A stretch of DNA of 64,000 nucleotides from Ktedonobacteria bacterium (lineage in GTDB: Bacteria > Chloroflexota > Ktedonobacteria > Ktedonobacterales > JACDGC01), in assembly GCA_027459785.1 (NCBI GenBank), contig DAIDGU010000057.1:34150-98149 (forward strand), given 5' to 3'. Made by a program: the position numbers and the translations under genes. The notes under the pieces were generated by a model. It had not been told where the DNA came from and searched no databases. It saw only the letters and a list, made by a program, of their open reading frames with translations. This document shows positions 8,937 through 54,618 of this stretch, one piece after another; the stretch's first letter is position 1; the number at the start of each line of letters is the position of its first letter.

Positions 8937-8950
8937 CATTCAATATTAGC

Positions 8951-23703: not shown

Positions 23704-23770
23704 CTCTAATTCGTGTCCTTCGTGATCATTTCGTGGCCTTCGTGTTCACCCATCCATCAGGAGATTATCA

Positions 23771-23813
23771 CCCCCTCTCCATCCGCAGATGGGGAGGGGG
23801 CAGGGGGCAGGGT
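23771..23813. repeat. CCCCTCCCC-family REP-like hairpin (inverted orientation)
   Basis: CCCCCTCTCCATCCGCAGATGGGGAGGGGGCAGGGGGCAGGG is the reverse complement of the 6268..6394 unit type. Confidence 0.7.
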
Positions 23814-32011: not shown

Positions 32012-33970
32012 TCACGATACCAACATGATCGGCGAGCCGATCAACGCGGCGGAAACCGTCATCAGCGTCGTGGGCGGCGCATAGGTGCCGTTCCAGGCGA
32101 TCTGCCACTCGCCGCCGGCGTAATCGGGCGGCAGGGTGAGGGTGAGGCGCACCCACTTGCCGTGATAGAGATCGTCGCCGTTCAACGAGGTTTGGATCGC
32201 GGGCATGCCGCTGACCGTGGTCATGCGCGCCCAGGTGGGATATGTGACACTGCCGCCAGCGGCGGGCGGGACGATGCGCAGCGCCACCGCGCCGGCCCCT
32301 AGCCCTGGATTGAAGAGGCCGAGCGCGATTTGGCGGCCCGCGTAAGAGGCGGGGATGTTCGCCAGCGGATACATTTGGGATGAACCACCTTGCAGCATCA
32401 CCGTCGCCGCGTTCCAGGGCGTGATGGTCGCGCCGCCCGTCGCGCAGTCATCGGCGGTCGTCGTCGCATTGCGACAGACCTTGACGGCGTAGCCATGTAC
32501 GCCGTAACCTGCGCTGGTATCGACCGTCAGCCGATAATAAGCGGGGGCGTTCGCGGGGGCGGCGGGGACATTAGAGCCGACGCGCACCCACTGCATGTAA
32601 TCAGGCGGCAATGCAGACTGGCAACCAACCCCATAGGCGATAGGCTGCTGGTAGCTGCTGCCCGCGCCGCTCTGCACGTTCCACGTGCCAGCCGATGGGC
32701 AGCCATGCGCGGCGAGATCATTGGGTGCGGCATCCAATGATGGCAGCGTGGTGATCTGGGTCGGCGGCAACGGCGCGTTCGGCGTGGTATCTGGCGGCGT
32801 GGCGGCGGGCCACAGCGCGGCCAGCGGCACATCGGCGTTGCGCTGATAGAGCAGCGGCACACTGAATAGCGTATAGGCGAGTTGCGGATAGAACGCCGGA
32901 TTATCTGTCATGCCGGTCGAGTAGATATTTTCCGTGGTAAAGAGCTGATCGTTACGGTTCGTGCCAGTATAAACGAAGCGCGGATTCCACACCCACACCG
33001 AATAGCCGCTGCCACCCGCCGGAATGGTGATGAGATAGCTCGCTCCCGTCGGCACTGGTCCCGTGCGCGTCGCCAGGCCGCCAAAACCGCTGGGAATCTG
33101 GTCGGGATTGCCCGGCGTCCCCGGACTACAATTCGGGCCGCTGGCATACTGGGGCGCGTTCGTGCCAATGCTCAGTTGTGAGGTGGTGTAGATGTTGGTG
33201 GCGGCATCAGCATGCAGGGTATCCGCGCCATCGCTCCAGCCCGTCTCGCACTGCACGCTATAGGGATCGCCACGCTCCTTCAACTCATAGGGGCTAGCCA
33301 GCGCCGCGACCTGTTGCCCGATGTTTTCTGGTTTATCACCGAAAGCTCCAGTGCTATCGCCGAGCGCGACCGGCGGCAGGATCTCCGCCGTGGCCGTCGC
33401 CAGCGTCGTCGCGGGCGCAGGATCGATGAGCGCCACCAGTGACACCGGTACATTGATGTGGATGGTCACGGTCAGCGCCGGCACCGGATTCACCTGCGAT
33501 GTGACTGAGATCGCGCTGGCGTCACCGAAGCCGTTCTGCGCGGCGACCTGAAGCGCCTGGCTCGTCGCGTCGCTGCCATCCGGCGCGGGCGTGGCCACCG
33601 TGGGGTATTGTGGGAGATAGGCGACGCCGGCCAGCGCGGCGGCTTCCGCCGCTCGTTCCGCCTGGGCGAACGCGATATAGACGCGCAACCCATCGATCGA
33701 TAACCCGACGAGCATCAGCAGCGTCACCACGCTCAGCGCGAAAAGGACGAGCGCCTGGCCCTTGGCAGCACGGGGAGGCCGAGGATACCAACAGCCACAC
33801 CCTACAAGGCTACGAAACGCACGAAAGGAAACCGGAGACACTAGCCACAACGGGTCCAAGCTTTCGCCGCGCCACGAACACAAGCACGCGCGCCAGCGCG
33901 CCCATACATCGAGCAAGCCGAGTTTTTTGCTTTTGAGATGAAAAGGCGGTGATGATGACATTTGGTTCAT
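32012..33970 (-). CDS. TadG-like pilus assembly/minor pilin protein, large (about 650 aa)
   Basis: KGQALVLFALSVVTLLMLVGLSIDGLRVYIAFAQAERAAEAAALAG is a TadG/Tad_N-type N-terminus. Its ATG overlaps the tadE-like stop (ATGA). The 5' part of track ORF 32012..34504 overlaps the upstream gene and is rejected. Confidence 0.65.
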   Translation of the reverse strand: MNQMSSSPPFHLKSKKLGLLDVWARWRACLCSWRGESLDPLWLVSPVSFRAFRSLVGCGCWYPRPPRAAKGQALVLFALSVVTLLMLVGLSIDGLRVYIAFAQAERAAEAAALAGVAYLPQYPTVATPAPDGSDATSQALQVAAQNGFGDASAISVTSQVNPVPALTVTIHINVPVSLVALIDPAPATTLATATAEILPPVALGDSTGAFGDKPENIGQQVAALASPYELKERGDPYSVQCETGWSDGADTLHADAATNIYTTSQLSIGTNAPQYASGPNCSPGTPGNPDQIPSGFGGLATRTGPVPTGASYLITIPAGGSGYSVWVWNPRFVYTGTNRNDQLFTTENIYSTGMTDNPAFYPQLAYTLFSVPLLYQRNADVPLAALWPAATPPDTTPNAPLPPTQITTLPSLDAAPNDLAAHGCPSAGTWNVQSGAGSSYQQPIAYGVGCQSALPPDYMQWVRVGSNVPAAPANAPAYYRLTVDTSAGYGVHGYAVKVCRNATTTADDCATGGATITPWNAATVMLQGGSSQMYPLANIPASYAGRQIALGLFNPGLGAGAVALRIVPPAAGGSVTYPTWARMTTVSGMPAIQTSLNGDDLYHGKWVRLTLTLPPDYAGGEWQIAWNGTYAPPTTLMTVSAALIGSPIMLVS

Positions 33971-34539
33971 CCTGGGGTGAGCGGTACAACGACATGATCG
34001 ACCACAGAGAGTGAGCCAGTGGCGATCAGTGGCGTTTGCCAGGTGTAGGTGTAGTCGATTTCGACGCCAAGCATGGCAGGCGGCGTAAAAGCAGGGGTGC
34101 GCTGCGCCGGCGACCAATTCATGGCCTGGGCGGGTGGGGCGCTCACCAGGCTCACACAGCCCGGATCGCCGGCATACACATCTGCATAGGCGCTGCCGCC
34201 CAGGCCACCAAGTGGCAATCCATCGCTCCCCGGCTGGTAGATGCTGATGCGCGTGATCGTGAGGCCGGCATATGGGCCGAGGCCGGCAGCAATCGCCCCC
34301 AGCGCATCGCAATCCGCCACCGCCGCATTCCCTGCCGCCGCCGCGCTGAGCGCGCCCTGGCGCGCGGCATATGTCACCGCGAGGTGCGCGTTCAGCAGCG
34401 CTCCCATGTCCACCACCCCGGCGAGCATCACGAAAAGGATGGTCACGAAGAGGACGAACTCGACCAAGCTCTGCCCGCGCCTTTTTCCACTGGGTTTTAT
34501 ACACAAGCGTTCCACGTGGAACATGGTGCCGTGAAACAT
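33967..34539 (-). CDS. TadE-like protein
   Basis: RRGQSLVEFVLFVTILFVMLAGVVDMG is the TadE N-terminal motif. Palindrome copy 6 lies in its first codons. Confidence 0.7.
   Translation of the reverse strand: MFHGTMFHVERLCIKPSGKRRGQSLVEFVLFVTILFVMLAGVVDMGALLNAHLAVTYAARQGALSAAAAGNAAVADCDALGAIAAGLGPYAGLTITRISIYQPGSDGLPLGGLGGSAYADVYAGDPGCVSLVSAPPAQAMNWSPAQRTPAFTPPAMLGVEIDYTYTWQTPLIATGSLSVVDHVVVPLTPG
34509..34522. repeat. palindrome copy 6 (GTTCCACGTGGAAC)
   Basis: Exact 14-mer. It is read as M-F-H-V-E-R at the 5' end of the tadE-like ORF. Confidence 0.95.
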
Positions 34540-34541: not shown

Positions 34542-35108
34542 TCAGCCTCCCTCCGGCGCGAGCGGCATTATCGCCGTCGCATTCAGCGTCAGCGTCGCGC
34601 CCGTCGCCCCGATGAACGAGGTCAGCCAGGTATACCGATACGTGATGCGCACGCCCAGGTAGACCGGCGCGGCGACCGTGCTGACACGGCTGGCGACGGG
34701 CCAGGACGGCGACGTGAGAGCGTTGCCCGCCCCATCATAGACATCCTCCGCGCCACCGGTTGGCCCAGCGCCCGTGGCATCGGATTGATAGATAATGATC
34801 TGCGTGATCTGCGCGACGAAAAGCGGCTGCACGATGCGCCGAATCAGCGCCTCCGTCTGCGCATCCGCATTGCCCAGCCGCGTCGCATCCAGCGCCGCCG
34901 TGCGCGCGCCCTGATGAGCGGCAGTGTCATAGAGCGCCGTCGCGCTATAGATCAGTGCTAATTCGATCAACCCGAAAAGCAGTGCCAGAAACAACGGCAG
35001 CACCAGCGCGAACTCGACGAGCGCCTGGCCGTGTCGGGCGGGGATACGTCCCACATGGCGCTGGGACGGCGGGGGCGAGGTGAAGTGCGGGGACGGCGGG
35101 CGCGGCAT
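34542..35108 (-). CDS. TadE-like protein (start uncertain; the ORF is open up to 35468)
   Basis: HGQALVEFALVLPLFLALLFGLIELAL is the TadE motif. The upstream 120 codons are encoded by REP and tandem-repeat DNA. Confidence 0.6.
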   Translation of the reverse strand: MPRPPSPHFTSPPPSQRHVGRIPARHGQALVEFALVLPLFLALLFGLIELALIYSATALYDTAAHQGARTAALDATRLGNADAQTEALIRRIVQPLFVAQITQIIIYQSDATGAGPTGGAEDVYDGAGNALTSPSWPVASRVSTVAAPVYLGVRITYRYTWLTSFIGATGATLTLNATAIMPLAPEGG

Positions 35109-35137
35109 CGGCGGGCGGTTGGCGGTGTGACGGGGAC

Positions 35138-35262
35138 GCGGGCGGTTGAAACCGCGCCGTTGGGGCCATCCGGCCACGAAACCTGCCTGCGCAGGTTCAC
35201 GCCAGTCCGCGAAGGCGGACTTCGTCGCCGCCAGGCGCTTAGGCGCGGTTTCAACCGCCCGC
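35138..35262. repeat. REPIN-like doublet: two REP units in inverted orientation
   Basis: GCGGGCGGTTGAAACCGCGCC...CACGAA-ACCTGC/CTGC/GCAGGT hairpin (35180..35197), then AGTCCGC/GAAG/GCGGACT (35204..35221) ...GGCGCGGTTTCAACCGCCCGC. Confidence 0.75.
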
Positions 35263-35324
35263 GTCCTCGTATCGGCAACCGCCCGCGTCCTCGTATCGGC
35301 AACCGCCCGCGTCCCCGTATCGGC
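35253..35324. repeat. 24-bp tandem repeat x3 (AACCGCCCGCGTCCTCGTATCGGC)
   Basis: Three consecutive units; the third has 1 mismatch. A degenerate CCGCCGCAACCTCCCG x2 follows. Confidence 0.85.
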
Positions 35325-35464
35325 AACCGCCCGCCGCAACCTCCCGCCGCCCGCCGCAACCTCCCGCGTCCCCCGCGCTCCGGCCATTGCCCGCATCCCC
35401 GGTACTCCCACTATTGCCCGCGTCTCCGGTGCTCCTTCCCGTACTACATATCTGCTTGTTATCC

Positions 35465-36394
35465 TCATAGCCGCATCCCCGGTGCGACCGAGTGGATGAT
35501 CTGGGGGATTGATGGCCCCAGTAGCACGATGAAAAGCGGCGGAAAAACGAGGATGACGAGGGGGAACATCATCTTGATCGGCGCTTCGCGGGCGAGGGTT
35601 TCGGCGCGCTGGCGGCGACGCACGCGCATATCAGCGGATTGTTCGTGCAGCACCTGTTCCAGCGGAGCGCCGAGCTGACGACTCTGGTTGATGGTGGCGA
35701 CGAGCGTGTGGATCTCATCCAGCCCCACGCGGTCGGCGAAGTGTTGCAGCGCGTCGCCCAGGTGGACGCCAGCGCGCAATTCCAGCAGCGTGCGCCCCAG
35801 TTCGGCGCGCATCACTGGCGGCGCATGCTCCGTCACGCGCGCCAAGGCGCGCTCCAACGCCATCACCCCTGTGCAAAGCGTCAGCATATCCAGCAGGTCA
35901 GGCAGGGCCGCACGAATGTCGCCCTGGCGTGTCTTGGCTTTGCCGTTCACCCACATCACCGGCAGCATATACGCCGCCGCCGCCGCGCCCACCCCACCCA
36001 ACACCACCTGCACCATACCGCCGCTGGCCACGAGCGCCAACGCGGCGAAACACAGACCAAAACCCACGCCCGCGAAAAAGCGCAACGCCATGAAGGTCGA
36101 GGCGTCTAAATTGCCGCCGAGGTCGGCCCGATTGATCACCCGCTGCATCTTATCCAGCGAGTTGCCGGGTGCCAACCGCCCGATACTTTTGCCCAGGTTA
36201 CTCAACATCGGGCGCACCAGACGTTCAAGCAAGGGACGACGCAATTCATCATCCACCATAACGATCCGCTGGCGCAAAAGGCGATCCAGCCGCTGCTGCA
36301 CGGCGTCGCCGCGCGCCCGCCGTCCCACGCCCACGACTAGCACGATCACGCTGATCCCCGCACAACACGCCGCTACTAGCGAATAGGCTATCAT
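35465..36394 (-). CDS. tadC: Flp pilus assembly protein TadC (T2SS F-family)
   Basis: ALPDLLDMLTLCTGVMALERAL...INQSRQLGAPLEQVL...AREAPIKMMFPLV, a typical TadC pattern. Confidence 0.8.
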   Translation of the reverse strand: MIAYSLVAACCAGISVIVLVVGVGRRARGDAVQQRLDRLLRQRIVMVDDELRRPLLERLVRPMLSNLGKSIGRLAPGNSLDKMQRVINRADLGGNLDASTFMALRFFAGVGFGLCFAALALVASGGMVQVVLGGVGAAAAAYMLPVMWVNGKAKTRQGDIRAALPDLLDMLTLCTGVMALERALARVTEHAPPVMRAELGRTLLELRAGVHLGDALQHFADRVGLDEIHTLVATINQSRQLGAPLEQVLHEQSADMRVRRRQRAETLAREAPIKMMFPLVILVFPPLFIVLLGPSIPQIIHSVAPGMRL

Positions 36395-36482: not shown

Positions 36483-37445
36483 CTACACGCGGATATCGAC
36501 GACTTTGCGGATGACGACGACGCCGAGCGCGATCATGATGCCCGCCGTCAGGAACATCGTCCAGCCGCACCAGGTCGTCGTCTGAAACACGCCCAGGATG
36601 TAATGGGGATTGAAGACGAGCAGCAAAAGCAAGATGGCGACGGGCATCAGCGCCACGACATAGCCGGAATAACGTTGCTGCGCCGTCAGCGACTTCACCT
36701 CACCTTCCAGGCGTACGCGCTCGCGGATCGTCTCGCTGATGCGTTCGAGCATCTGCACCAGATTGCCGCCGCTCTCAGTCTGGATGGCGATGGCTGTGAC
36801 GAGCAATTGCAGATCGACGCTGGGGACGCGATCCGTCAGGTTCGTCAGCGCCTCTTTGACGCCGGTGCCATAGGTGATCTGCTGCACCACCAATTGCAGT
36901 TCCTTCGAGATCGGCGGCTTGGTCTGGCGCGCGGCCAGGTCCAGCGCCTGAGCGATGGTGCTGCTGCCGGAGCGCAGGGCGCTGGCGATCAGTTGCACCG
37001 CGCCGGGCAGTTGCGCGTCGAAGTCGCGCGCCCGCTTCGCACGGCGGGCGGCAATCCACCATTGCGGCCCCCAAAACGTGCCGGCGACGAGCAGCATGAA
37101 GAGGAAGATGTTATGGAGGACGACGCTCAGAAGGAGGCCCAGGCCCAGCAAGATGGCGACCAGCAGGATGAATTCACCGGCGGTCAGCGGCACGCCCGCG
37201 CGCGAAAGCTGTTCGTCCAACCCCACACGCCCGGCGAAGCGATTGAGCGCGGCGACGAGCTGGCCGGCGTCCTGGCGCGGCAGGGCATCGCGCGCCAACC
37301 CCTGGCGCTGGATCTCGAGCTGGCGCAAGCGATCTGCCACGCGGTTATGCCGGCGCGTCCATTCACGGCTGAGGCCGAAAAGGATGGTGAAGACCGCCAG
37401 CGCGCTCAGCACGCTCACCAGCAGCGGCACCTGACCCGCGCTCAT
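36483..37445 (-). CDS. tadB: Flp pilus assembly protein TadB (T2SS F-family)
   Basis: QLPGAVQLIASALRSGSS...IQTESGGNLVQMLERISETIRER. ATGA overlap with the cpaF stop. Confidence 0.8.
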   Translation of the reverse strand: MSAGQVPLLVSVLSALAVFTILFGLSREWTRRHNRVADRLRQLEIQRQGLARDALPRQDAGQLVAALNRFAGRVGLDEQLSRAGVPLTAGEFILLVAILLGLGLLLSVVLHNIFLFMLLVAGTFWGPQWWIAARRAKRARDFDAQLPGAVQLIASALRSGSSTIAQALDLAARQTKPPISKELQLVVQQITYGTGVKEALTNLTDRVPSVDLQLLVTAIAIQTESGGNLVQMLERISETIRERVRLEGEVKSLTAQQRYSGYVVALMPVAILLLLLVFNPHYILGVFQTTTWCGWTMFLTAGIMIALGVVVIRKVVDIRV

Positions 37446-38842
37446 GGCCGCGCCTCACGGCGAAAGATCGTCGGCGGCACAGGATAACCACGCCGCTCCA
37501 TCTCGTCCAGCAGGCGCGGCACGGTCCCTTTGGCGCGCAATCGACCGTGTACGCGGCCCTGCTCATCCAGTCCGGCGCGCTCGAACTCGAAGATCTCGAC
37601 CACCTCCACACCGTCGCCGTTCGCCCCCGCGCGCAATTCGGCGATGGAAGCGATCTTGCGCGAGCCGTCCTCGAAATGGTTCAGATGCACGATCAGGTTG
37701 ATGGCGCTGAGGATTTGCGCGCGCACGGCGCGGTCCGGCAGATCGATGCCAGCTTGCAATACCAGCATCTCCAGCCGGTTCAGCACGTCCGGCGCGCTAT
37801 TCGCGTGCAGCGTCGTCATCGATCCCTCATGGCCCGTATTCATCGCTTGCAACATGTCCAGCGCCTCGCCGCCACGACACTCGCCGACGATAATACGGTC
37901 GGGCCGCATTCTGAGCGCGTTAGCTACGAGCTGGCGAATCGTCACCTGATGCTTGCCCTCAACACTGGGCGGGCGGCTTTCCATGCGCACCACGTGCGCC
38001 TGCTGCAACTGCAATTCCGCCGCATCCTCGATGGTGATGATGCGCTGCTCCTGGGGGATGAAGACCGACAGAACGTTGAGGATCGTCGTCTTACCGGTGT
38101 TGGTGCCGCCGGAGACGATGATGTTCATCCGCGCCTCCACGCAACGCTGCAAAAAGAGCATCATATCGCGCGAGATCGTGCCGTTGTCGATCAGATCTTG
38201 CGGCTGCAACGCCTTCGCTGCGAACTTCCGGATCGTCAGGATGGGACCGTCGAGCGCGATAGGGCGGATGACGATGTTGACGCGCGACCCATCTTTCAGG
38301 CGAGCATCCACCGTCGGCGTCGTCTCATCCACGCGCCGCCCGATCTGCGAGACGATGCGCTCGATGACGCGCATCAGGTGCGGTTCGTCGTGGAACCGGA
38401 TGTCGGTCTGCATCATCGCGCCGCGCCGCTGGTCAATCCACACGCGGTATGGTCCGTTGACCATGATTTCGGTCACGTTCTCGTCGGCCAACAAGGGTTC
38501 GATGGGACCATAGCCCAGGATGTCGGCCAGGCAACGCGCAATCAGCGCCAGGCGCTCGTTCTTGCTCAGGGGCATCTGCTGCTTCTGCGCCTCAATATCG
38601 ATGATGCGCTGCAAACGCTCTTCCACCTCGCGTCGCATCTGCACCGGTGGCAACTGATCGATCTGGGTCTTGCTCGTCTCCAGGTCCGCCACCAGCAACA
38701 ATTGGATCTTGCGCTGCAAGTCGTAATAGGCCTGTTCGCGCGCGGTGGGACCGGTGCGGCCAGTGCCGCGCAGATCGCCGCTGCCGCTGGGGCGCGGCGT
38801 CGTCGGGTGGGCGGGCATATCAGCATAGCGTCGGGGTGTCAT
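37442..38842 (-). CDS. cpaF: Tad secretion ATPase CpaF/TadA
   Basis: VSGGTNTGKTTILNVL (Walker A), IITIEDAAEL, GHEGSMTTLHANS. GGAGG RBS. Confidence 0.9.
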   Translation of the reverse strand: MTPRRYADMPAHPTTPRPSGSGDLRGTGRTGPTAREQAYYDLQRKIQLLLVADLETSKTQIDQLPPVQMRREVEERLQRIIDIEAQKQQMPLSKNERLALIARCLADILGYGPIEPLLADENVTEIMVNGPYRVWIDQRRGAMMQTDIRFHDEPHLMRVIERIVSQIGRRVDETTPTVDARLKDGSRVNIVIRPIALDGPILTIRKFAAKALQPQDLIDNGTISRDMMLFLQRCVEARMNIIVSGGTNTGKTTILNVLSVFIPQEQRIITIEDAAELQLQQAHVVRMESRPPSVEGKHQVTIRQLVANALRMRPDRIIVGECRGGEALDMLQAMNTGHEGSMTTLHANSAPDVLNRLEMLVLQAGIDLPDRAVRAQILSAINLIVHLNHFEDGSRKIASIAELRAGANGDGVEVVEIFEFERAGLDEQGRVHGRLRAKGTVPRLLDEMERRGYPVPPTIFRREARP

Positions 38843-38860: not shown

Positions 38861-40066
38861 TCACGCGCGCGGTTTTTTCGTCGCTTGCAAATCTTGATAC
38901 AGCCGCCGCGCCAGGTCGTGCATCGCACGGCTGATGGGCGCACGGCGCGCATAGGTGACGAAAGGGACGCCGCGATTGACGGCCCCGATGACGGTGCGCA
39001 CATCGTCGGGAAACTGCGCGGCGAAGCGCCGCCCCAGCGACTGTTCGACGCGCTTAGGGGCGATCTGATAGCCGCCATCCATACGATTGCCGATCAGCCA
39101 GCAACGGTCGCCAGCGATACCCCGCCGGCGCAAGCCTTCCAGCAAGCCCTTCACACGATTGATGGCAGTGATCTCCGGCGTCGTAACGATCAAGAGGCGG
39201 TCGGCGCTCTCCAGGATCGCTTCATTGGCGTCGGTGAAAGTGGCATCAGTATCTACCACCGTCACATCGCAATGCTCACGCACCTCAACCAGGATCGCAC
39301 GCATCGTCTCGCGCCGGAACTCGCGCGCCACCTCTGGATCATCCGGCGAACGCAAGAGGCGGATGCCTGAATCATGGCGCACAGCGACCGATTGCAACGT
39401 CTCGAAGTCCAGATCTTCAGGATCGCGCAACATGTCGAGGGAGTGGTTGATGTGATCAAGGTTCAGCAAGACGTGGTCATCACCGGCGGCGAGGTTGCCA
39501 TCTACCAGCAGCACCTCTTCGGCACACGCATGCAAGGCCACCGCCAGGTTCGCCGCGATGATGCTGCGCCCAACACCACCCTTCGCGCCACAGACAGCCA
39601 CCAGGTGTTGCCCGCGCGCGGATGTTCCACGTGGAACACTGGGATGCGCGCCCGAACCCCGGCTGGTCCCCGGCAACTGCACCACCCGGCGGATCGCGCG
39701 CAACACGTCGTCGGCGCGCAAGGGCTTCACCAGAAAACCACGCGCCCCCACGTCCAGCGCCTGCTGCATCAGATCCTTGCTATCTTCGACAGACATCAGG
39801 ATGATCTGCGCCGGCACCTCCATGCTGAGGACGTGCGCCGCTGCCAGCCCGTCCATGCCGGGCATGTAGATATCCATGAGGATGATATCCGGCTGGTGCC
39901 GCCGCGCCAGCGCGATGCCCTCCCTGGCATCCGTGGCGATGCCGACGACGCGCAGATCCGCCACGGTGCTGAGCCAGCGGCGCACCGCCTGGGCCGTTTC
40001 GATGAGGTCGTCGATGATGAGGATGCGGATCGGCTGGCCCGCTCCTTCAGGTGAGTGCTGTGCCAT
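38861..40066 (-). CDS. CpaE/TadZ-like ParA/MinD-family ATPase with a canonical N-terminal receiver domain
   Basis: Receiver: ILIIDDL...DIILMDIYMPGMDG...IILMSV...GFLVKP. ATPase: VAVCGAKGGVGRS (deviant Walker A). GGGAGGGG RBS. Confidence 0.8.
   Translation of the reverse strand: MAQHSPEGAGQPIRILIIDDLIETAQAVRRWLSTVADLRVVGIATDAREGIALARRHQPDIILMDIYMPGMDGLAAAHVLSMEVPAQIILMSVEDSKDLMQQALDVGARGFLVKPLRADDVLRAIRRVVQLPGTSRGSGAHPSVPRGTSARGQHLVAVCGAKGGVGRSIIAANLAVALHACAEEVLLVDGNLAAGDDHVLLNLDHINHSLDMLRDPEDLDFETLQSVAVRHDSGIRLLRSPDDPEVAREFRRETMRAILVEVREHCDVTVVDTDATFTDANEAILESADRLLIVTTPEITAINRVKGLLEGLRRRGIAGDRCWLIGNRMDGGYQIAPKRVEQSLGRRFAAQFPDDVRTVIGAVNRGVPFVTYARRAPISRAMHDLARRLYQDLQATKKPRA
39623..39638. repeat. 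palindrome copy 7 (TGTTCCACGTGGAACA)
   Basis: Exact 16-mer inside the cpaE-like CDS. It is read S-V-P-R-G-T-S in the linker between the receiver and ATPase domains. Confidence 0.95.
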
Positions 40067-40249
40067 CCTTGGCCCCTCCCGCCTGTGCAAGCGCAAGAGG
40101 GATGCCAGCCCAAGCATAAGTCCGATAGTCCTTTATCTACCACATGAATTCCGCTCACATCTCACGTATAATAGATGATGTCCAGAGATATGTTGTCTCT
40201 GGCTGTGCATCGTCCTCTTGACATGATCGGAGGAGAAAGGATCTGGACC

Positions 40250-40501
40250 ATGCCCTTGTATCTCGACAAGCACCATCACATCGACGGCCTGACCACCGAT
40301 GGGGTGAAGCAAGCGCATGAAGCTGACCTCGCGATCCAGGAACAGTATGGTGTCACGTATTTGCAGTATTGGTTCAACGAAGAGACTGGCACGGTCTTTT
40401 GTTTGGTAGAGGCACCTAGCAAAGAAGCCGCCGCCACCGTTCACCGTCTCGCTCACGGGTTGGAAGCCGATGAGATCGTCGAAGTGCAGCCAGGAAGCTG
40501 A
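40250..40501 (+). CDS. DUF4242 family protein
   Basis: MPLYLDKHH...VKQAHEADLAIQEQYGVTYLQYWFNEETGTVFCLVEAPSKEAAATVHRLAHG. GGAGGAG RBS. Confidence 0.7.
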   Translation: MPLYLDKHHHIDGLTTDGVKQAHEADLAIQEQYGVTYLQYWFNEETGTVFCLVEAPSKEAAATVHRLAHGLEADEIVEVQPGS

Positions 40502-40679
40502 GCAGATCTGCCACGATAAGCGGCTGGTTCCTTTATAGCGGATCTGGCCGCTTATTGATGATTGGTAACGAATGATCCCTTATCGCACTAGGAAGTGAGG
40601 GCGAGCCGACTTTCAAAGCCGTATGAGGGTTTCTTGGGCTGGACGCAACAGGCGATTAAGCCACAGACTTTATGACCGG

Positions 40680-41879
40680 CTACTGACTACTCAGCACTGG
40701 CTTAAAAAGCTTTTTGTTAGCGGCAGCAACAAAGCTAAAGAATGCTAATAGTGACACTATCAGAGCGATTGTCCAATTATTGCCAAGAAATTGTAGAGCA
40801 AACCCCACGAGGAAAAGACCAGCAGAGTAAGCAAGGAAATCTCCTGACCGCGTAATGCTGGCAACTCTTCCTTGAATATGATGGGGTATTACGCCTGAAA
40901 TATTGCCACAAATAATATAAAAGGCTGGCAGTATGGCGAACAAGAGCGCAGTCACCACCGTTAATAGCGTAATATTGTATGCAAACAAATACAAGGAGAA
41001 CGTTACTGCACAGAGTATATTGGTGATGACGAGCATTGTATAGCGGTCGTATTGGTGCATTACTTTACCGAAGAATGCGGAGCCGAGGATGCCAGCGACG
41101 GCACTAATCGCCAAAACGATACCAATAGTAGTCGCTGAAGCGTGTAAGTCACGCGCGAATACAATCACCAGCAGTGAGAGGGCGGAAGTGGCCAATGCTC
41201 TGGCCCATGAAAGAGCAATGAAAACCCTATACATACGATTATGCCAGAACCATGCACCAGCCTCTTTAAGACCTTTTCGTATGCTCGTTTGCTTTAGGGC
41301 ATCTGGAGCTGATAAGGGAGAATTTATGAGTACTAAGGCTATGACGTTCAAGAAATACGACAGAGAGTCTGTCGCAAAGGAGAAGACAGCTCCAACTGTT
41401 TGATACAAAAAACCGCCGAATGAGGGTCCTACGAGCATTGCGAAGTGCTCAATCATACTATCCTGAGCAACTGCTTGAGGTAATTGCTCATTCGCTACAA
41501 GAAATCTACGGGATGAGAACCTACCAATATTTGCAAATACGAAACACCCGCCCTCAATGCCCATAAGAATAAATAGCTCGACAACTGTAAGCCGATGGAG
41601 GAATAGGCCAATGGCGAGCATTGCAAAGCCACTCCCCGCATTCCCAGCGAGCATTATGTTTCGTCTATTCCATTTATCGAGAATGTAGCCTGCGGGTATA
41701 GCTAAGAGCACATAGGTCACTCCTCGCATTGCAACAACCGAACCGGCAATTGCTGATGAGCCGGTCAGTGATAGGATAACGAGCGGCATAGCAATGCCCG
41801 AGATTTCTGTACCCATCCATGAGAGGCCTTGTCCGGCCCACATTAGCATGTAGTTACGCTGTTTCCAGAGTGGTTGCAT
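40680..41879 (-). CDS. MFS transporter (AT-rich, likely foreign)
   Basis: ~12 hydrophobic segments. The start is taken at MQPLWKQRNYMLMWAGQ. A hand count of 40741..40800 gives 22/60 G+C. Confidence 0.8.
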   Translation of the reverse strand: MQPLWKQRNYMLMWAGQGLSWMGTEISGIAMPLVILSLTGSSAIAGSVVAMRGVTYVLLAIPAGYILDKWNRRNIMLAGNAGSGFAMLAIGLFLHRLTVVELFILMGIEGGCFVFANIGRFSSRRFLVANEQLPQAVAQDSMIEHFAMLVGPSFGGFLYQTVGAVFSFATDSLSYFLNVIALVLINSPLSAPDALKQTSIRKGLKEAGAWFWHNRMYRVFIALSWARALATSALSLLVIVFARDLHASATTIGIVLAISAVAGILGSAFFGKVMHQYDRYTMLVITNILCAVTFSLYLFAYNITLLTVVTALLFAILPAFYIICGNISGVIPHHIQGRVASITRSGDFLAYSAGLFLVGFALQFLGNNWTIALIVSLLAFFSFVAAANKKLFKPVLSSQ

Positions 41880-42216
41880 AGAGTGATAATAACACACAAA
41901 TGACTGCTGTTGTATGGCCCCCATATTGCAACCGCCATTGCAGCGCATTCGATACAGTCAGATAACCAATCGTCGGTGGGTTATGAAGCGCGCTCGGCTA
42001 GTGCGATTCGCCCGGCATCATCTAAGGGAAGGTTGCGTTATATAGATCGGGAATAGCCGTCGTCGTGAGAACGGTGGCGAAGGAACGTGCCTCGACTTTC
42101 AATGTTGCGATAGTTAAAATAGGAAGCATGGCTCACCTCTTTGCCTCAGCGACATTCAATGTCTCCATGCTATGCCATAACTCACCACTCTGTCAAACTA
42201 TTCTGCTTTCATCTCA

Positions 42217-43014
42217 TCACGGCGGGGTGAAGCCGAAGTGGCTGATGATCCAGCCGGTGTCGATGGGCTGGGTGGTGACAAGGCCGTTATCACCCGGCTT
42301 GCGCAGAACGAGATCCAGCTTGGCGGTTTCGACGAGCAGCTTGAGTACCAGCGCGTCCTGGTGGGTGACGGCGACATAGAGCATACCACCGCTGATCATA
42401 TAGATGGTGAGGTTTTGCAGCGTCTCCTGCGCCACCTGGCAGCCGCCACGTACCGTCGGCCCCTGCACGCACTCCGTCGCCAGGATGTCCACGTGGTCGC
42501 CCTCTTGCGCGCCGATCTGCATGCCGGGCGCGCTACCCAGCGGCAGCGCCACCAACACGTCGCCGGCAGGCAGACCTGCCGGATCATGGTTCGTGAGGCT
42601 GTGCGCTGGGCCAGAACCCAGCGCGGTCATGCGCCCGTCGTTGCGCCGCAAGATGTCGCCAGCGTAGAACGGCGCAGTGATGATCTGATTGCTCAGCGCC
42701 GTGTTCAGGTCGCTCTGATTGGTGAAGGTGAAAGCGTCGGCGGGAACATCGCTCGCTGGCAGATGTTCCACGTGGAACACATCACCGATGCGCGCATAGC
42801 CGTTACCGCTCTGCGCGAGGGAAAGGACGATGCCGGCGTTCAAAGGCTGGGCCGCCACCACGACAGCCACCCCCTGACCACCGCTGCCCGCACCGGTATT
42901 ATTGGTAGTCAGAAAGAGTACCAGCACCGCCGTGATGAGCGCCAGGACGATGCCGAGGATGATGAGCGGCGTGCCGCCGCCGGATGTGCGTGGACGTTGC
43001 GTGGGCGCAGCCAT
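42217..43014 (-). CDS. cpaB: Flp pilus assembly protein CpaB/RcpC
   Basis: N-terminal transmembrane segment (PLIILGIVLALITAVLVLFL) followed by a SAF-like region. GGAGGAGG RBS before the ATG at 43014. Position is immediately after flp. Confidence 0.7.
   Translation of the reverse strand: MAAPTQRPRTSGGGTPLIILGIVLALITAVLVLFLTTNNTGAGSGGQGVAVVVAAQPLNAGIVLSLAQSGNGYARIGDVFHVEHLPASDVPADAFTFTNQSDLNTALSNQIITAPFYAGDILRRNDGRMTALGSGPAHSLTNHDPAGLPAGDVLVALPLGSAPGMQIGAQEGDHVDILATECVQGPTVRGGCQVAQETLQNLTIYMISGGMLYVAVTHQDALVLKLLVETAKLDLVLRKPGDNGLVTTQPIDTGWIISHFGFTPP
42764..42779. repeat. palindrome copy 8 (TGTTCCACGTGGAACA)
   Basis: Exact 16-mer inside the cpaB CDS, read D-V-F-H-V-E-H-L. Confidence 0.95.
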
Positions 43015-43101
43015 AACAAAAAAGCCTCCTCCATGAGTCCCGGTGGGAATCATTCCCTTGCTGCTGGGATCGAGCGCAAGCAGCATACCTGAAACGCTGC
43101 G

Positions 43102-43254
43102 TTACGTGCCTTTAAGGGTGGTCACGATGCTGGTGATGGCGGGCAACAGCACGATGATAATGCCGATCGCCACGACAGCGACCAGCGCGATAATCAGGGC
43201 ATATTCCACCAGCCCCAATGGGCGACGGTCGTCTTGCGGGGGTTGATTCGTCAT
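43102..43254 (-). CDS. flp: Flp/Fap-family pilin (50 aa; not in the ORF track)
   Basis: Own translation: MTNQPPQDDRRPLGLVEYALIIALVAVVAIGIIIVLLPAITSIVTTLKGT. It has the G-x-x-EY motif plus a hydrophobic helix. GGAGG lies 9 nt upstream. Confidence 0.75.
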   Translation of the reverse strand: MTNQPPQDDRRPLGLVEYALIIALVAVVAIGIIIVLLPAITSIVTTLKGT

Positions 43255-43343: not shown

Positions 43344-44588
43344 CTAGCGCGCTTCGTTCACGATGTAGTCCAGCCGCGTGCCGTGGCCGGGGGCGCTCTT
43401 GATGCCGAGGATCGCCCCGATCAGATCGACCTCGATGCACAACTGGCCCAGACCGGAATGAAAGCCTTGCCGCGCCCGTTCCATCACAGGATCGACCGCG
43501 AAGCCCACGCCGTCATCTTCCACCGAGAGGATCACCGTGTCGGGCTGGTAGGTGAGCGCGACCTGGATGTGCCGCGCCTGGCTGTGGCGCAGCGCGTTAC
43601 GCACGGCCTCGCGCGCCGCGCGGAAGAGCGCGCGTTCGATGGCGACATGGCAGCGCCGTTCGCGCCCACTCAGGCGCACGCCCAAGGGCGCGCCGCGCGT
43701 CTCAATCAGGTCGTGCAGGTAGCGTTGCAGCGTGCCAGCCAGGCCCAATTCGCTCAGCATCATCGGCTCTAGCTCGAAGATGAGCATATCCGCCTCGCGC
43801 AATGCCTCGTTCAGTCGGTTCTTCAGATCGCCAACGACATGCTGCGCGTGCGCCGGATCGCTCTTGAAGGCTGCCTCGCAGAACTCCGCTTGCAGCACAG
43901 CATCCGATAACGCGAAGCGCACGCGCTCGTCGATGCTGCGCGCCACGCTGTGGCGCTCATATTCGCGCGCGGCCAGCAGCGCCTCTTGATCCACCAGTTG
44001 CGCCGAAGTCACCGGCTGTGGTCCGGCATTCAATTCGTTGGATTCCGCGAAGTCGGCTGAAAGGGCCAGGCGCGCGGGCAGCAACGGCGCGGAATAGGGC
44101 GGCGGTTCGCGCAGGAACGCGGCATCGGCCATCGCCTGCAAGGCGAAATCCAGCGCGCCCAGGCAACGGCGGTCGTGGTCGGCTTCCGTGCGCAGATAGT
44201 CGCACACCTCGCGCGTGCCGACATACGCCAGTTCGGCCTGCGCCCACTCCTGGTAGGCTTTGACGATGGCCTGGCGGCTGTGCTGGCTGAGATCCTGCTC
44301 GATAGCGCGCAGGGCCGCTGTCGCGTGCGTGCGCCGTTCCGCTTGGCCGCTCATCAGCCGCTCGGATTCGGTCAGGTTGCCGGCGATCTCGTGGAGGTGT
44401 GCTTGCAGGCGGCGACACTCGTCATTCAGCCGCGCCCGCGCGGCGTCTAACGTGGCGCTCTGGGCAAAATCAGGTTCATCGTCGGGGCGAAACTCGTCGT
44501 CCAATGGCCCCAATTCGCCGCTGTCAGGGACAGGGCGATGCTGGATTTGGCTGCTGGAACGATCGGCGAAATCGGCGGTGATGGGCAT
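43344..44588 (-). CDS. cytoplasmic HisKA_3-type histidine-kinase-like protein with a degenerate H-box
   Basis: N-box AVRNALRHSQA, DDGVGF and GHGTRL are present. The H-box reads EYERHSVARSIDERV where ...ARELHD... is expected. No transmembrane segments. Confidence 0.7.
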   Translation of the reverse strand: MPITADFADRSSSQIQHRPVPDSGELGPLDDEFRPDDEPDFAQSATLDAARARLNDECRRLQAHLHEIAGNLTESERLMSGQAERRTHATAALRAIEQDLSQHSRQAIVKAYQEWAQAELAYVGTREVCDYLRTEADHDRRCLGALDFALQAMADAAFLREPPPYSAPLLPARLALSADFAESNELNAGPQPVTSAQLVDQEALLAAREYERHSVARSIDERVRFALSDAVLQAEFCEAAFKSDPAHAQHVVGDLKNRLNEALREADMLIFELEPMMLSELGLAGTLQRYLHDLIETRGAPLGVRLSGRERRCHVAIERALFRAAREAVRNALRHSQARHIQVALTYQPDTVILSVEDDGVGFAVDPVMERARQGFHSGLGQLCIEVDLIGAILGIKSAPGHGTRLDYIVNEAR

Positions 44589-44614
44589 CCGTGCCACCTT
44601 CCCTTCCAGGGACT

Positions 44615-44677
44615 GCGGGCGATTGAAATCGCGCCTAAGGGCTACGCCACGAAGTCCACCTGCGTGGACTGGGGATC
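44615..44677. repeat. REP unit (GCGGGCGATTGAAATCGCGCC...AGTCCAC/CTGC/GTGGACT)
   Basis: Same architecture as 54524.. and 35138... Lies between the response regulator stop and the kinase-like start. Confidence 0.75.
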
Positions 44678-44684
44678 GACAGGG

Positions 44685-45377
44685 CTAAGCGTCGTCGGTG
44701 TGGATCTTGATCCAGCCGTGGCGGAGCGCGTGGACGACAGCAGCCGTGCGGTCATTCACGTTGAGTTTTTTCAGGATCGACGTGATGTGATTCTTGACGG
44801 TCTGATCGCTGATCTTGAGCGACTTGGCGATCTCTTTGTTGCTGTTGCCACGTGAAATGTAATCCAGGATCTCGACCTCACGGGTGGAGAGCGGCGTATA
44901 GAGCGGCGTCACCTCCGGCTCATCCTCGGTCGCCATCTCGCGGAAGACGCGCAACACGCGCGAGGCCACGTGTGGGCGCGAAAGGACGTTATCGTTGATG
45001 AGGAAGATGCCCTGGCTGACGTTCGAGATCGCCTTCACCAAGTCTTCGGCCTCAATGTCTTTCAGCAGATAGGCCGCCGCGCCGACTTTGATACTCTGGA
45101 ACAATTGTTCTTCGTCTTCTTGTTCGGTGAGCATGATGATGGCGACCTGCGGGGAGAAGTGGCGCAATTGTCGGGCCAGTTCCAGGGAATTCCCGCTGAG
45201 CAGATAAGCATCGACCAGGATGACATCCGGCGTTTGGGTGCGCGCCAATTCCAGCCCTTGGGTCGCGTCCGCGCTTTCAGCGATGAGGGTACAGTTGCCG
45301 GATTGCTCCATCGCCCAGCGCACGCCAGCGCGAAACAGCGGATGTTCATCGATGATCATGATGCGAATGGTTTCCAT
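44685..45377 (-). CDS. NarL/LuxR-family response regulator
   Basis: IMIIDEHP...DVILVDAYL...IIMLT...YLLK receiver, plus the LuxR HTH LSTREVEILDYISRGNSNKEIAKSL. Confidence 0.9.
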   Translation of the reverse strand: METIRIMIIDEHPLFRAGVRWAMEQSGNCTLIAESADATQGLELARTQTPDVILVDAYLLSGNSLELARQLRHFSPQVAIIMLTEQEDEEQLFQSIKVGAAAYLLKDIEAEDLVKAISNVSQGIFLINDNVLSRPHVASRVLRVFREMATEDEPEVTPLYTPLSTREVEILDYISRGNSNKEIAKSLKISDQTVKNHITSILKKLNVNDRTAAVVHALRHGWIKIHTDDA

Positions 45378-45640
45378 GCAGCGGATCTCCCTTGTGGCGC
45401 TTCTCAGTGGGTGGACTTTTGTACGTCATAGTATACCCGATGCGCACAAGAACGCCTAGCCCCCAATTTTTGATAGCCCAGATAGGCTATCTATGCCTGA
45501 ATGGATGGCAGAGATTGGGACCGAGGCGACGATAACGCTAGCCCATCCGGGGAGGCGATCGCGTAAAACAAGATCGGTTGGTGAGCGAGGGCAACCAGCA
45601 GGGCAAATCGACTAAGAACAATGCGATCCGGCAGGCGAGG

Positions 45641-46333
45641 GCCGGCTGGCGGGTAAACCCGCGCCTTCGATCACCAAGCCTCCCTACGGAGGCTGGAGGT
45701 CGGCGGGGACGATCACAGAGATGAGGATGAATCTGAGGGGGAGTTTGGCGATGGCGGTTCGGTTACGTCGTCTCGTTCCATGATTTTCCAGTGGGCGCAG
45801 GTGCCGAGCGTGTGGTGATGGGCTTCCTGATTGCGGATGTAGTCTTGCACATTGGGCAAACGATGTTCGCCGACGCTGAACGCACCATAGCCGCCCTGCC
45901 ATTTGAAGAGATCGACGCCGGGGCGGGCGACGATGGCGTGGGCGGAGGAGCCTTTGATCTCGCCGATCAGTTTGGCGAGCGGAACGGTCGCGGGCAGCCG
46001 AACCAGCAGGTGCATATGATCCTCCACACCGCCTAACCCCAGCGGGTGCGCCCCGAACTCCTCGCATTTCGCCAATATCAACCGATACACATCGCCTCGA
46101 ATGTCTTTCGTCAACAATGGCAACCGATCCCAGGTCGCCCACACATAATGCACGAAGACATGCACGTTTGCTCCCCGCCTCGCCGCTGCCCTCCCGCGCT
46201 CTTATCCTCAACGAGGAAACACTTTCATCGCTTCAACTATACAATATACAACATTCGCGCCCTGATCGCCTCTCTCGCCCTCCAGCCTCCGCAGGGAGGC
46301 TTCGTGATCGAAAGCGTGGGTTTACCCGCCGGC
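45641..46333 (-). mobile_element. RAYT unit: IS200-like Y1 transposase flanked by inverted REP hairpins
   Basis: The 52-nt core at 45648..45699 matches the reverse complement of 46279..46330 at 48/52 positions. Each contains an AGCCTCC/N4/GGAGGCT hairpin. Confidence 0.8.
45713..46165 (-). CDS. REP-associated tyrosine transposase (IS200/IS605 TnpA-like, Y1 HUH)
   Basis: MHVFVHYVWATWDRLPLL..., HUH motif VEDHMHLLV, and a C-terminal Tyr context VQDYIRNQ. Confidence 0.85.
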   Translation of the reverse strand: MHVFVHYVWATWDRLPLLTKDIRGDVYRLILAKCEEFGAHPLGLGGVEDHMHLLVRLPATVPLAKLIGEIKGSSAHAIVARPGVDLFKWQGGYGAFSVGEHRLPNVQDYIRNQEAHHHTLGTCAHWKIMERDDVTEPPSPNSPSDSSSSL

Positions 46334-46431
46334 TGGGCTGGGCGTCCCATGCGATCACGCTATTCTCGCTCACGTGGCGGACAGGAATGTCCACCCCACG
46401 AAAAAGATATGATCAACAACGTCATGGAATA

Positions 46432-53204: not shown

Positions 53205-53891
53205 ATGAGTTTACTGACGAAGCGCGATATCATGAGCGTGATTGCGACGGGGGCGCTGGCCTTCACGCCGGAACTGGACGCCTTTCAGCTTCAGCCGCAC
53301 GCGGTGGATCTGCGGCTGGGCTTCACCTTTTTGGTGGCGCGGCGCTGGATCTTTAATCAGCTGGGGCGCATCGCCTTGCGGTCGGATCAGTTGGAAAGCG
53401 GCGCGGCGCTCTATGACACGATTGAGTTGGAACAAGGCCAGGTCTTCGATCTGTTGCCGGGTGAGGGCGTACTCGTCTCCACGCTGGAGGTGATCCGCAT
53501 GCCGGACGATCTGGTGGGGCAGATGTATCCGCGCTCGTCGGTGAACCGGCGCGGCCTGGCGGTGGACCTGAGCGGCATCATCGACGCCGGCTATGAGGGC
53601 AACTTGATCATCCCCGTGCGCAACAATGATCGCAGCGCGGTGGTGCGCCTCTATCCCGGCGAACGCTTCTGCCAGATCACCTTCACAGCACTTACGGGAC
53701 CGGTGGAGGTGCGTCGGAGTCGCTATCACCGCCGCGACATCGCCACGGGCGTGTTGCCGGAGCAAAACCAGGATGAGGTGCAATTGGTGCGCGCGGGTGA
53801 CATCACCGCGCTGAAGGCGCGCTACGGCATGACGCAGCCCCACCCCCCGGCCCCCTCCCCCGATGGAGAGGGGGAAAAGAACGGGAGTTAG
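53205..53891 (+). CDS. dCTP deaminase/dUTPase-superfamily protein (atypical)
   Basis: [18 protein letters not shown] and [11 protein letters not shown] match the family. The C-terminal 20 aa are encoded by a REP-like repeat. GAGGTGG RBS. Confidence 0.7.
53837..53873. repeat. CCCCTCCCC-family REP-like unit inside the 3' end of the dcd-like ORF
   Basis: CCCCACCCCCCGGCCCCCTCCCCCGATGGAGAGGGGG, translated ...[13 protein letters not shown]... Confidence 0.65.
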
Positions 53892-54367: not shown

Positions 54368-54523
54368 CGGTTGTACTGCTCCTTTACTAATCATACAGGA
54401 TGCCCTGCATACATTCTAGGATACAGTCGCGCAACCGGAAAGGATGTTACAAGGGATGGCGGGCGGGTGGGTGATGCGAGGGGGGACGGGGGACACGATA
54501 TATGGGGAACGGCGGGCGGGGAC

Positions 54524-54618
54524 GGCGGGCGGTTGAAACCGCGCCTAAGGGCGTGCCGCCACGAAGTCCACCTGCGTGGACTAGGATCCAAGCCTGCGAC
54601 GGCGGGTTTCGTGGTCGC
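54524..54618. repeat. REP unit (GGCGGGCGGTTGAAACCGCGCCTAAGGGC...AGTCCAC/CTGC/GTGGACT) with an extension
   Basis: The hairpin is identical to that of 44615..44677. A G-rich run precedes it. Confidence 0.75.

Follow-up and report, generated by a model that had tools for sequence, protein, structure and literature searches.

The tad operon described here lies on the minus strand of a 64,000-nt window from a Ktedonobacteria bacterium (contig DAIDGU010000057.1, positions 34,150-98,149 of the forward strand). The window is the whole stretch of DNA analysed, and coordinates refer to it unless a relative is named. tadA (37442-38842), tadB (36483-37445), and tadC (35465-36394; T2SSF platform protein, Pfam PF00482) are followed by a TadE-like open reading frame (ORF) of 308 codons (34542-35468), a second TadE gene (33967-34539), and a TadG-like gene inside 32012-34504. 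The TadE-like ORF begins with an ATG that overlaps the tadC TGA (ATGA) and stays open through a doublet of palindromic units and a set of tandem repeats, as a preliminary description of this DNA had stated. The units belong to a family that resembles the repetitive extragenic palindromic (REP) elements, and elsewhere in the window a Y1/HUH gene stands between two inverted copies of the unit.

The cleavage motif G147|QALVE152F opens the pseudopilin body of the ORF (34542-35030, minus strand), and the Pfam TadE domain (PF07811) covers residues 147-189 only (34902-35030, E = 2.8e-13). GQALVEFA is invariant in 12 aligned sequences, and so are G147 (-1) and E152 (+5). The remainder, from the ATG to the codon before Gly147 (35031-35468, minus strand, 146 codons), is an extension derived from the repeats. 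All 50 homologs of the 308-aa ORF match only its C-terminal portion (about 16-64%, mostly 51-57%), and the extension is absent from every one of them. The homologs are typically 170-190 aa long, with 8-10 residues (up to about 20) preceding GQALVEF. The probable start, the ATG at 35466-35468, occupies the position of the ancestral tadE start. A rival short-leader start, the GTG at 35052-35054, lies 8 codons before Gly147 and aligns with the starts of the orthologs. The 357-bp gap between tadC and the TadE motif that had been given earlier presupposes a start at 35108; from ATG 35468 to the cleavage Gly codon the distance is 438 nt.

Inside the extension, two units stand tail to tail with their heads outward and form a REPIN-like doublet (35130-35270). 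Unit A (35133-35201, plus strand) is inverted relative to the tad coding strand, and unit B (35200-35267, minus strand) lies on the coding strand; they score 66.1 and 72.6 bits, respectively, with the covariance model R1 described below. Unit A comprises the head GGCGGTTGAAACCGCGCC, a middle hairpin (GGCC-atcc-GGCC), and a tail (AACCTGC-ctgc-GCAGGTT), giving three hairpins in the single-stranded DNA (ssDNA) fold. The tail of unit B is AGTCCGC-cttc-GCGGACT. The outer arms of the doublet (35130-35158 and 35242-35270, 29 nt) are 97% complementary, and its ssDNA fold has an energy of -63.8 kcal/mol (z = -9.3).

The doublet is adjoined by a 24-nt tandem repeat (35252-35334; 3.5 copies, 98% matches by Tandem Repeats Finder) and by two degenerate, head-derived tandem repeats, one of period 20 (35327-35367, 2 copies) and one of period 27 (35363-35435, 2.7 copies). 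Each 24-nt copy consists of the 5' flank, the first head arm (GACGCGGGCGGTTG on the coding strand), and 10 nt, and the array is translated on the coding strand as iterated RAVADT. The cores of the period-20 and period-27 units, GCGGGAGGTTG and GCGGGCAAT, are similar to GCGGGCGGTTG, and every 24-, 20-, or 27-nt unit opens with GACGCGGGCGGTTG or a degenerate form of it on the coding strand. The tandem repeats are iterated partial copies of the unit's own 5' end and no separate element. Partial head copies (CAACCGCCCGC... on the coding strand) also lie on the other side of the doublet (35060-35132), as a mirror of the 24-nt array, and the arms 35111-35148 and 35357-35394 are 76% complementary. 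With mirror-image partial heads on both sides, the block of about 410 nt is therefore an imperfect large palindrome. Folded as RNA, the insert reaches -263 kcal/mol (z = -5.9).

The repeat family was collected with a head-pattern scan of one genome per species, in which one head base pair was left free and which returned at least 115 stretches. R1 was trained on 56 units and run over the window with its filters off. It finds seven units in the 64 kb: four canonical, one degenerate, and two flanking the Y1 gene. In addition to units A and B, these are a single unit (44610-44674, plus strand, 70.6 bits) with a compensated head (GCGATT/AATCGC), an intact unit (54520-54586, plus strand, 72.8 bits) that forms a second doublet (54520-54668) with a degenerate inverted partner (54587-54668, minus strand, 24.4 bits), and the two flanks of the Y1 gene (45640-45698, plus strand, 50.6 bits; 46280-46338, minus strand, 40.3 bits), which were outside the training set. 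The second doublet has a 13-nt head stutter at 54505-54532. The single unit takes up most of an 87-nt spacer (44598-44684) that separates a response-regulator gene (44685-45377) from its histidine-kinase gene (43344-44597), a further insertion inside an operon, adjoining the Y1 module.

In the family as a whole, the head reads GC-n-GGCGGTTGAAACCGCGCC and is itself a hairpin of 5-6 bp (GCGGT-TGAA-ACCGC). The middle hairpin is short and, in Chloroflexi-type copies, reads GGCC-n3-4-GGCC or GGCGGC-tcgc-GCCGCC. A CAC(G/A)AA linker leads to the 7-bp tail stem, which has a C-T-N-C loop. Six tail stems of the window are perfectly complementary (AACCTGC/GCAGGTT, AGTCCGC/GCGGACT, two of AGTCCAC/GTGGACT, and two of AGCCTCC/GGAGGCT). 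Other genomes contain more than 100 additional units. Among the matches listed, the units are found in Chloroflexota, Cyanobacteria, Armatimonadota, and Longimicrobium, and the 18-nt head is identical across the four phyla. A literature search by sub-strings of the head found no paper on the family.

A perfect hairpin (at least 6 bp, 4-nt loop) lies downstream of the head in 61 of 132 head matches listed and upstream in only 8. The free head pair of these 61 matches is G/C in 51, A/T in 9, and T/T in one (L050), the last probably a chance match. In the listed head matches without a hairpin, every combination of the free pair occurs. The 56-unit set demanded perfect Watson-Crick stems, which inflates the percentage paired; in its alignment, five of the seven tail pairs have changed on both sides and none on one side only. 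To offset the filter, the counts were redone on 119 covariance-model matches that tolerate mismatches. In this set, 95.9% of the tail cells are paired, and 233 double-sided changes are present versus 57±10 in shuffles, with none of 500 shuffles reaching the observed number. When the partners are slid by 1-3 columns, at most 26 double-sided changes are left. RNA under selection on one strand would accept G·U far more readily than A·C. Among about 1,600 to 2,000 cells, there are 22 G·T and 17 A·C combinations, or 31 and 19 in a second count. Because G·T is as rare as A·C, the hairpins appear to form in DNA and not in RNA, and the covariation points to selection on a DNA hairpin in which either strand may fold.

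The preliminary description had assigned one layout to the units at 35138, 35204, 44615, and 54524 and to the flanks of the Y1 gene. These score 40.3-72.8 bits with R1. The layout elements that it named are present, but it had overlooked that the head is a hairpin and that there is a third, middle hairpin. The stems that it listed as variable and perfectly complementary read as it gave them, and the tail-to-tail doublet and the 24-bp repeats after it are borne out by the outer arms, the ssDNA fold, and the period of 24 with 3.5 copies. Its proposal that covariation reflects selection on structure, and the test for compensatory excess that it suggested, are upheld by both the 56-unit and the 119-unit sets, with the refinement that the structure is probably a DNA hairpin.

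The Y1/HUH gene (45713-46165, minus strand) encodes a 150-aa product with a Pfam Y1_Tnp domain (PF01797, E = 1e-19) and the motifs DHMH, KWQ, and YIRNQEAHH, the Tyr of the last being Y109. Together with its inverted units it makes up a REPtron-like module (45640-46338, minus strand), in which the gene is enclosed by inverted arms of 74 nt with 84% complementarity. Homologs were found in Nostoc, Nodularia, Brasilonema, Ktedonobacterales, and Oscillochloris, and they share WxTWDRLP, GGVEDHVH, KWQGGYGA, and YIxNQxxHH; the DHMH, KWQ, and Tyr motifs of the window protein are conserved in 29 homologs. To relate the gene to the repeat, we use a sample of 80 metagenomic loci picked only by similarity to the Y1 protein and then scanned with the repeat model. 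Thirty-five of the 40 closest relatives carry a unit within 1 kb of the Y1 gene. In 27 of these, a plus unit lies upstream of the gene and a minus unit downstream, each within 250 nt and with the heads outward. Among the 40 more distant relatives, units turn up in only 3. Therefore, the gene and the repeat are linked in the manner of a REPtron. Both occur in Cyanobacteria and Chloroflexota, and the repeat occurs also in Armatimonadota and Longimicrobium. A tblastn search of the Y1 protein against 119 loci (115 from the head pattern and four tad loci) gave no match, which fits a rare gene with many repeats and is uninformative on the association.

The Y1 protein carries the signature of TnpA_Y1 subclass 1.2, as judged by the published motif and not by the authors' profile. 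This subclass, with the signature Y---Q--HH, DH[IV]H, and WQ and a length of about 148 aa, was described as an IS200-like group of low copy number that lacks REPs (Quentin et al. 2018, PMC6006769). Among the papers searched, those from 2018 onward describe no repeats for subclass 1.2, and none describes a link between this repeat family and the Y1 gene. The associated Y1 proteins have diverged to about 45% identity while the head is unchanged across at least four phyla. By its association with the units, the protein encoded at 45713-46165 is a candidate for the enzyme that mobilises, or at least maintains, the family.

The tadC-tadE junction was compared in relatives, as the preliminary description had proposed. 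In five repeat-free orthologous operons (L003/L004, L120/L121, L122, L123/L124, and L125/L126), tadC and tadE overlap by 1-4 nt. TadC is 309-311 aa long in these operons, and TadE is 170-181 aa long and 58-70% identical to that of the window. The ancestral junction had no spacer, and the ancestral TadE leader had about 9-10 residues. The insert is present in near relatives: TadC of L207, L208, and L210 is at least 90% identical to that of the window, and TadE of L002 is 88% identical. The contigs L209, L210, and L211 end at the repeat or ahead of it and yield partial alleles or none. L001 also carries an insert. At one end it has a forward unit that starts 6 nt past the GTG, and at the other an inverted unit at 5251-5336 of that locus. 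TadE of L001 is 58% identical to that of the window, further away than the repeat-free lineages, and the head there is read in a different frame (WRLKPRL versus AVETAPK), indicating an independent or heavily remodelled insertion.

The edges of the insert retain ancestral-like codons. L207 opens with ATG AGG CAC (M-R-H), like the ancestral GTG AAG CAT (V-K-H) of L003, and RPRRG-like residues persist beside the cleavage Gly. Therefore, the repeat lies inside the leader-coding part of tadE and not between the genes. TadE homologs of 210-320 aa mostly have C-terminal extensions, and a repeat-derived leader is found among them only in P0009, the protein of L001. The leader of another homolog, P0018 (229 aa), reads VIGGVETARRERR..., and its GGVETA resembles a degraded head read in frame. 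It may be the remnant of a similar insertion in another lineage.

The alleles have kept the TadE frame. The distance from the start codon to the Gly codon is 438 nt in the window, 264 nt in L207, 309 nt in L208, and 348 nt in L001. All four complete alleles are free of stops in the TadE frame, and the other two sense frames contain 4 and 3 stops in the window, 2 and 4 in L207, 2 and 4 in L208, and 3 and 1 in L001. The two partial alleles, L210 and L002, are likewise in frame and stop-free, L002 being open to the contig end with both heads in the frame of the window. The first head lies 54 nt (L207 and L208), 150 nt (L210), or 210 nt (window) from the ATG, always a multiple of 3. In total, the alleles differ by at least seven length changes (45, 156, 21, 39, 96, 54, and 3 nt), each of them a multiple of 3. 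In dinucleotide shuffles, the chance of a stop-free TadE frame is 0.054, 0.17, 0.15, and 0.19 for the window, L207, L208, and L001, respectively, and the chance of being in frame is 1 in 3 per independent length state. The joint chance is about 1e-3 with three independent length states; the window is left out because it was flagged for its open frame, and L207 and L208 are merged for the stops. If only L207/L208 and L001 are independent, the joint chance is a few per thousand.

The start sites point in the same direction. The Shine-Dalgarno duplex at ATG 35468 has an energy of -5.7 kcal/mol, the same as at tadB and tadC, and this ATG retains the upstream GGGG(A/G) context of the ancestral start. 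Shine-Dalgarno pairing is not found at GTG 35054 (+0.7 kcal/mol) or at ATG 35108 (+1.9 kcal/mol). In addition, the internal starts would be buried in the large structure if no ribosomes came in from upstream. In L001, every in-frame ATG, GTG, or TTG stands at least 56 codons before the cleavage Gly; therefore, a long leader is unavoidable there. The start at ATG 35108 was rejected, having neither Shine-Dalgarno pairing nor a counterpart in the orthologs.

From this comparative evidence, the insert is probably translated. It is also likely, though a shade less so, that translation begins at ATG 35468 and yields an expanded leader that prepilin peptidase then cleaves. The leaders of class III prepilins are hydrophilic and of variable length. 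They end in Gly or Ala, remain in the cytoplasm, and are removed by prepilin peptidase; TadE and TadF are Tad minor pilins (PMC10191384). By analogy with these known leaders, a long leader would be topologically acceptable. The preliminary description had offered two options, repeats exapted as a long N-terminal extension or a start at about 35108. The extension is favoured and the rival start is GTG 35054, but 'exapted' is too strong, because the extension has neither coding-type composition nor sequence conservation. 'Tolerated, translated and discarded' fits it better.

Several observations weigh against translation of the insert. The G+C fractions at the first, second, and third codon positions (GC1, GC2, and GC3) are 0.71, 0.69, and 0.73 in the extension versus 0.65, 0.52, and 0.80 in the TadE body. 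Composition thus gives the extension no coding support, and it cannot separate translated junk from an untranslated spacer. The sequence of the extension is not conserved. In all four close alleles, an in-frame GTG or ATG persists 5-8 codons ahead of the Gly, at the ancestral leader length, and metagenome annotation called short genes of 167-170 aa. The alleles of the window, L207, L208, L210, and L002 share one ancestral insertion and are not fully independent, and tandem units of 24 and 27 nt preserve the frame automatically. No prepilin peptidase gene was identified within the window. Finally, we know of no precedent for a prepilin leader of 146 residues.

Much of this would suit an insert that is an untranslated spacer, with the start of TadE at GTG 35054 or, with lower probability, ATG 35108. 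The doublet would then work only on the mRNA, like classical REPs within operons, either blocking 3'-5' decay or uncoupling tadABC expression from the pseudopilin genes, and the open frame would be a by-product of the G+C-rich composition of the repeats. Indeed, 16% of 146-codon stretches in all six frames of the window are stop-free. Homologs that begin 8-10 residues before GQALVEF, a GTG or ATG kept at the short-leader position in the window, L002, L207, and L208, the short gene calls in L002, L207, and L208, the very stable RNA fold of the insert, and the lack of coding-type GC3 would all be expected of a spacer. However, it leaves six alleles whose lengths are multiples of 3 and which are stop-free in exactly the TadE frame, with 1-4 stops in the other sense frames. 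It also has to place initiation at sites that have no Shine-Dalgarno pairing and lie inside a large structure, and in L001 the 56 codons before the Gly offer it no start codon. A promoter and terminator scan found no promoter-like or terminator-like site inside the insert. We regard an untranslated spacer as unlikely. The insert as a promoter of its own or as a terminator was dropped on the result of the same scan.

Two further explanations, one for the units and one for the gene, are far less probable. The units could be genes for structured RNAs or RNA motifs that regulate in cis, in which case selection would act on transcripts, and three covarying hairpins joined by conserved single-stranded linkers would fit such a role. 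But G·U is no commoner than A·C, both orientations of the unit are represented, in doublets and in the inverted flanks of a Y1/HUH gene, copies lie inside an ORF and in varied contexts, and Rfam 15 at its gathering thresholds has no match in the window. Selection on transcripts is therefore the least credible explanation. A permissive Rfam search returned generic long-hairpin microRNA models and CRISPR-DR28 at 23 bits (cut-off 35 bits); these matches are below threshold and generic and were dismissed as by-products of the palindromes. Alternatively, the insertion could have inactivated this tadE copy, with the second TadE gene (33967-34539) compensating and the open frame being a short-lived accident. 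A paralogous TadE gene does follow directly, but both paralogs stand side by side in every relative. Moreover, the TadE body shares 88% identity with its closest ortholog and keeps 42 of 42 invariant columns of the 12 aligned sequences, and no stops or frameshifts are present in five lineages that have diverged by many indels. Inactivation is thus very improbable.

We propose the following explanation, in which the insert is translated. Only copies that fold in ssDNA would be recognised and copied, so that selection would act on the element and not on an RNA. A REPIN-type doublet would have landed within the stretch coding for the TadE leader of about 9-10 residues, where the tadC stop overlapped the tadE start. 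The outer ends of the doublet would then have given rise to the tandem partial-head copies (24, 20, and 27 nt), a fast-changing minisatellite. Ribosomes would reinitiate at the ATG overlapping the tadC stop, and only in-frame, stop-free variants of the insert would still yield TadE; the insert would consequently be read as an arginine-rich leader of 146 residues. The leader would remain in the cytoplasm, prepilin peptidase would cut after Gly147 (G|QALVE), and the mature pseudopilin would be normal.

Tandem stutter of the head is not confined to the tad insert. An extra copy of the unit's own 5' 12-mer lies within 100 nt upstream in 24 of 259 units, versus 7.6 expected. The 13-nt stutter at 54505-54532 comprises two copies, and beside the Y1 gene of L130 there are five copies of 18 nt and three of 19 nt (positions about 800-900 and 1590-1650 of that locus). 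Similar arrays are present in L131, L149, and L069, lone extra copies about 31 nt off are seen too, for example in L069, and stutter copies also lie beside units that flank Y1 genes. In the tad insert, the number of tandem copies ranges across close strains from none (L207) through several (L210) to about eight (window), and the array behaves as a fast minisatellite. That the stutter originates from nicking and stalling at the head hairpin is speculation, and slippage at the hairpin would be the simpler origin. Long tandem arrays of whole units or doublets, with periods of about 105-150 nt and resembling bacterial interspersed mosaic elements (BIMEs), lie directly upstream of Y1 genes in L148 (498-976), L144 (85-566), L143 (387-953), L158 (268-856), and L154 (37-836).

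By its arrangement, the system is a REP/REPIN-RAYT system (RAYT, REP-associated tyrosine transposase) from which the classical Y---NP motif and GTAG/CGTC tag are missing. It shares with the systems of Proteobacteria, such as the REP/BIME elements of E. coli with TnpA_REP and the REPINs of Pseudomonas fluorescens (PMC3116915, PMC3337134, PMC8266576), short dispersed palindromic units, inverted doublets that form a long hairpin, a Y1/HUH gene flanked by inverted units, and clusters and tandem arrays of units beside the gene. Unlike a classical REP, the unit is about 60-70 nt long and forms two or three separate hairpins instead of one imperfect palindrome, and the 56-unit consensus has no 5' GTAG/CGTC tag (criterion of PMC3733652). 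Classical REPs differ between species, whereas the head here is the same across phyla. The Y1 protein has YIRNQEAHH, the IS200-like Y---Q--HH, and not the Y---NP of RAYTs (criterion of PMC6006769). It resembles subclass 1.2 in its motifs (DH[IVM]H, WQ, and Y---Q--HH), its length of about 148-150 aa, and its occurrence in Cyanobacteria (PMC6006769). However, the published subclass has neither REPs nor IS200-type terminal structures, whereas 27 of the 40 closest relatives here are flanked by inverted units of a single repeat family that is also scattered through genomes. The Y1_Tnp domain with its HuH and Tyr motifs is also that of IS200/IS605, but those elements have distinct subterminal hairpins, no inverted ends, and multiple copies, in contrast to the inverted 74-nt arms and the single gene copy of this window.

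The TadE-like protein itself has the features of TadE/TadF class III prepilins, namely a TadE domain, Gly at -1, Glu at +5, a hydrophilic and positively charged leader, and a hydrophobic helix. The leader would, however, have 88-146 residues, in contrast to about 9-20 in the repeat-free orthologs. E. coli has REPs inside operons, for example between malE and malF, that modulate mRNA decay or translation. As there, a stable hairpin stands between two genes of one operon; unlike there, the junction had no intergenic space, and ribosomes appear to read through the element. In Tad systems, TadV processes the minor pilins TadE and TadF (PMC10191384). Rickettsia palindromic elements and intragenic miniature inverted-repeat transposable elements offer another parallel, since they too are palindromic repeats that lie in frame inside a gene and add a peptide (PMC10969869). 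In contrast to the Rickettsia elements, the site here is a leader that is normally cleaved, so that the mature protein would be unchanged; a length-variable minisatellite accompanies the insert, and translation of the insert is predicted. In-frame survival itself therefore has precedent, and the novelty here lies in the position, within a leader that is discarded, and in the comparative evidence for selection on the frame.

The tad cluster has further features. The Flp pilin ORF (43102-43254, minus strand), the cpaB-like gene (42217-43086), and the cpaE-like gene (38861-40117, minus strand) lie beyond tadA. A block at about 40130-42200, with a 422-aa multi-pass membrane ORF (40680-41948), splits the cluster between the cpaB-like and cpaE-like genes. 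Its G+C content looks lower by eye, and the block may be an insertion. At the other end, the 830-codon ORF 32012-34504 (minus strand) contains the TadG-like domain (Pfam Tad, residues 249-294) and overlaps the second TadE gene. Its orthologs are 586-610 aa long, and its long N-terminal extension is probably spurious.

Other palindromic repeats are present in the window as well. The perfect 16-nt palindrome TGTTCCACGTGGAACA has nine copies at up to two mismatches (5268, 8808, 11128, 16235, 17529, 27417, 34508, 39623, and 42764) versus none expected, and several of them directly precede gene starts. At 34508-34523 the palindrome supplies the codons for MFHVE, the first residues of the second TadE gene, and this copy is kept in L003, L120, L122, L207, and L002. 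The 16-nt palindrome may act as an operator or as a promoter element, or it may be a highly iterated palindrome. Four copies of a second hairpin repeat family, GGACAGACATTCNTGTCTGTC, lie at 8858-8938 and 61834-62010, and three of them form a tandem array with a 36-nt period (61859-61980). A third palindromic family, CCCCTCCCCATCNGCGGATGGAGAGGGG, occurs in both orientations (6275-6309, 6327-6361, 23765-23806, and 53839-53873).

REP-RAYT systems are known mainly from Proteobacteria, and their units are thought to co-evolve fast with the enzyme. Against this background, we put forward three linked claims, which as a set remain tentative and may well fail in part. The three-hairpin REP family, whose head is identical in Chloroflexota, Cyanobacteria, Armatimonadota, and Gemmatimonadota, may be the missing partner of the 'orphan' subclass 1.2. 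The REPIN and its head-derived minisatellite may be translated as the longest known prepilin leader, of 88-146 residues, with selection keeping the insert in frame because the leader is discarded. The tandem stutter may mark the site where the enzyme nicks and copying stalls. If the claims are true, gene callers will report forms of 167 aa and 308 aa for the same pseudopilin, and the repeat-encoded peptides AVETAPK, KSAFADW, and GFNRPRP would contaminate protein databases. Subclass 1.2 would be a second, independent route from an IS200-type transposase to a REP-associated enzyme, and the family would offer a tractable system for what a domesticated ssDNA enzyme reads, a hairpin fixed in sequence together with a hairpin defined only by its shape. 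The tad junction would show a selfish repeat surviving, inside a throw-away segment, in an operon without intergenic space, and cleavable leaders would be safe harbours for mobile repeats in tightly coupled operons.

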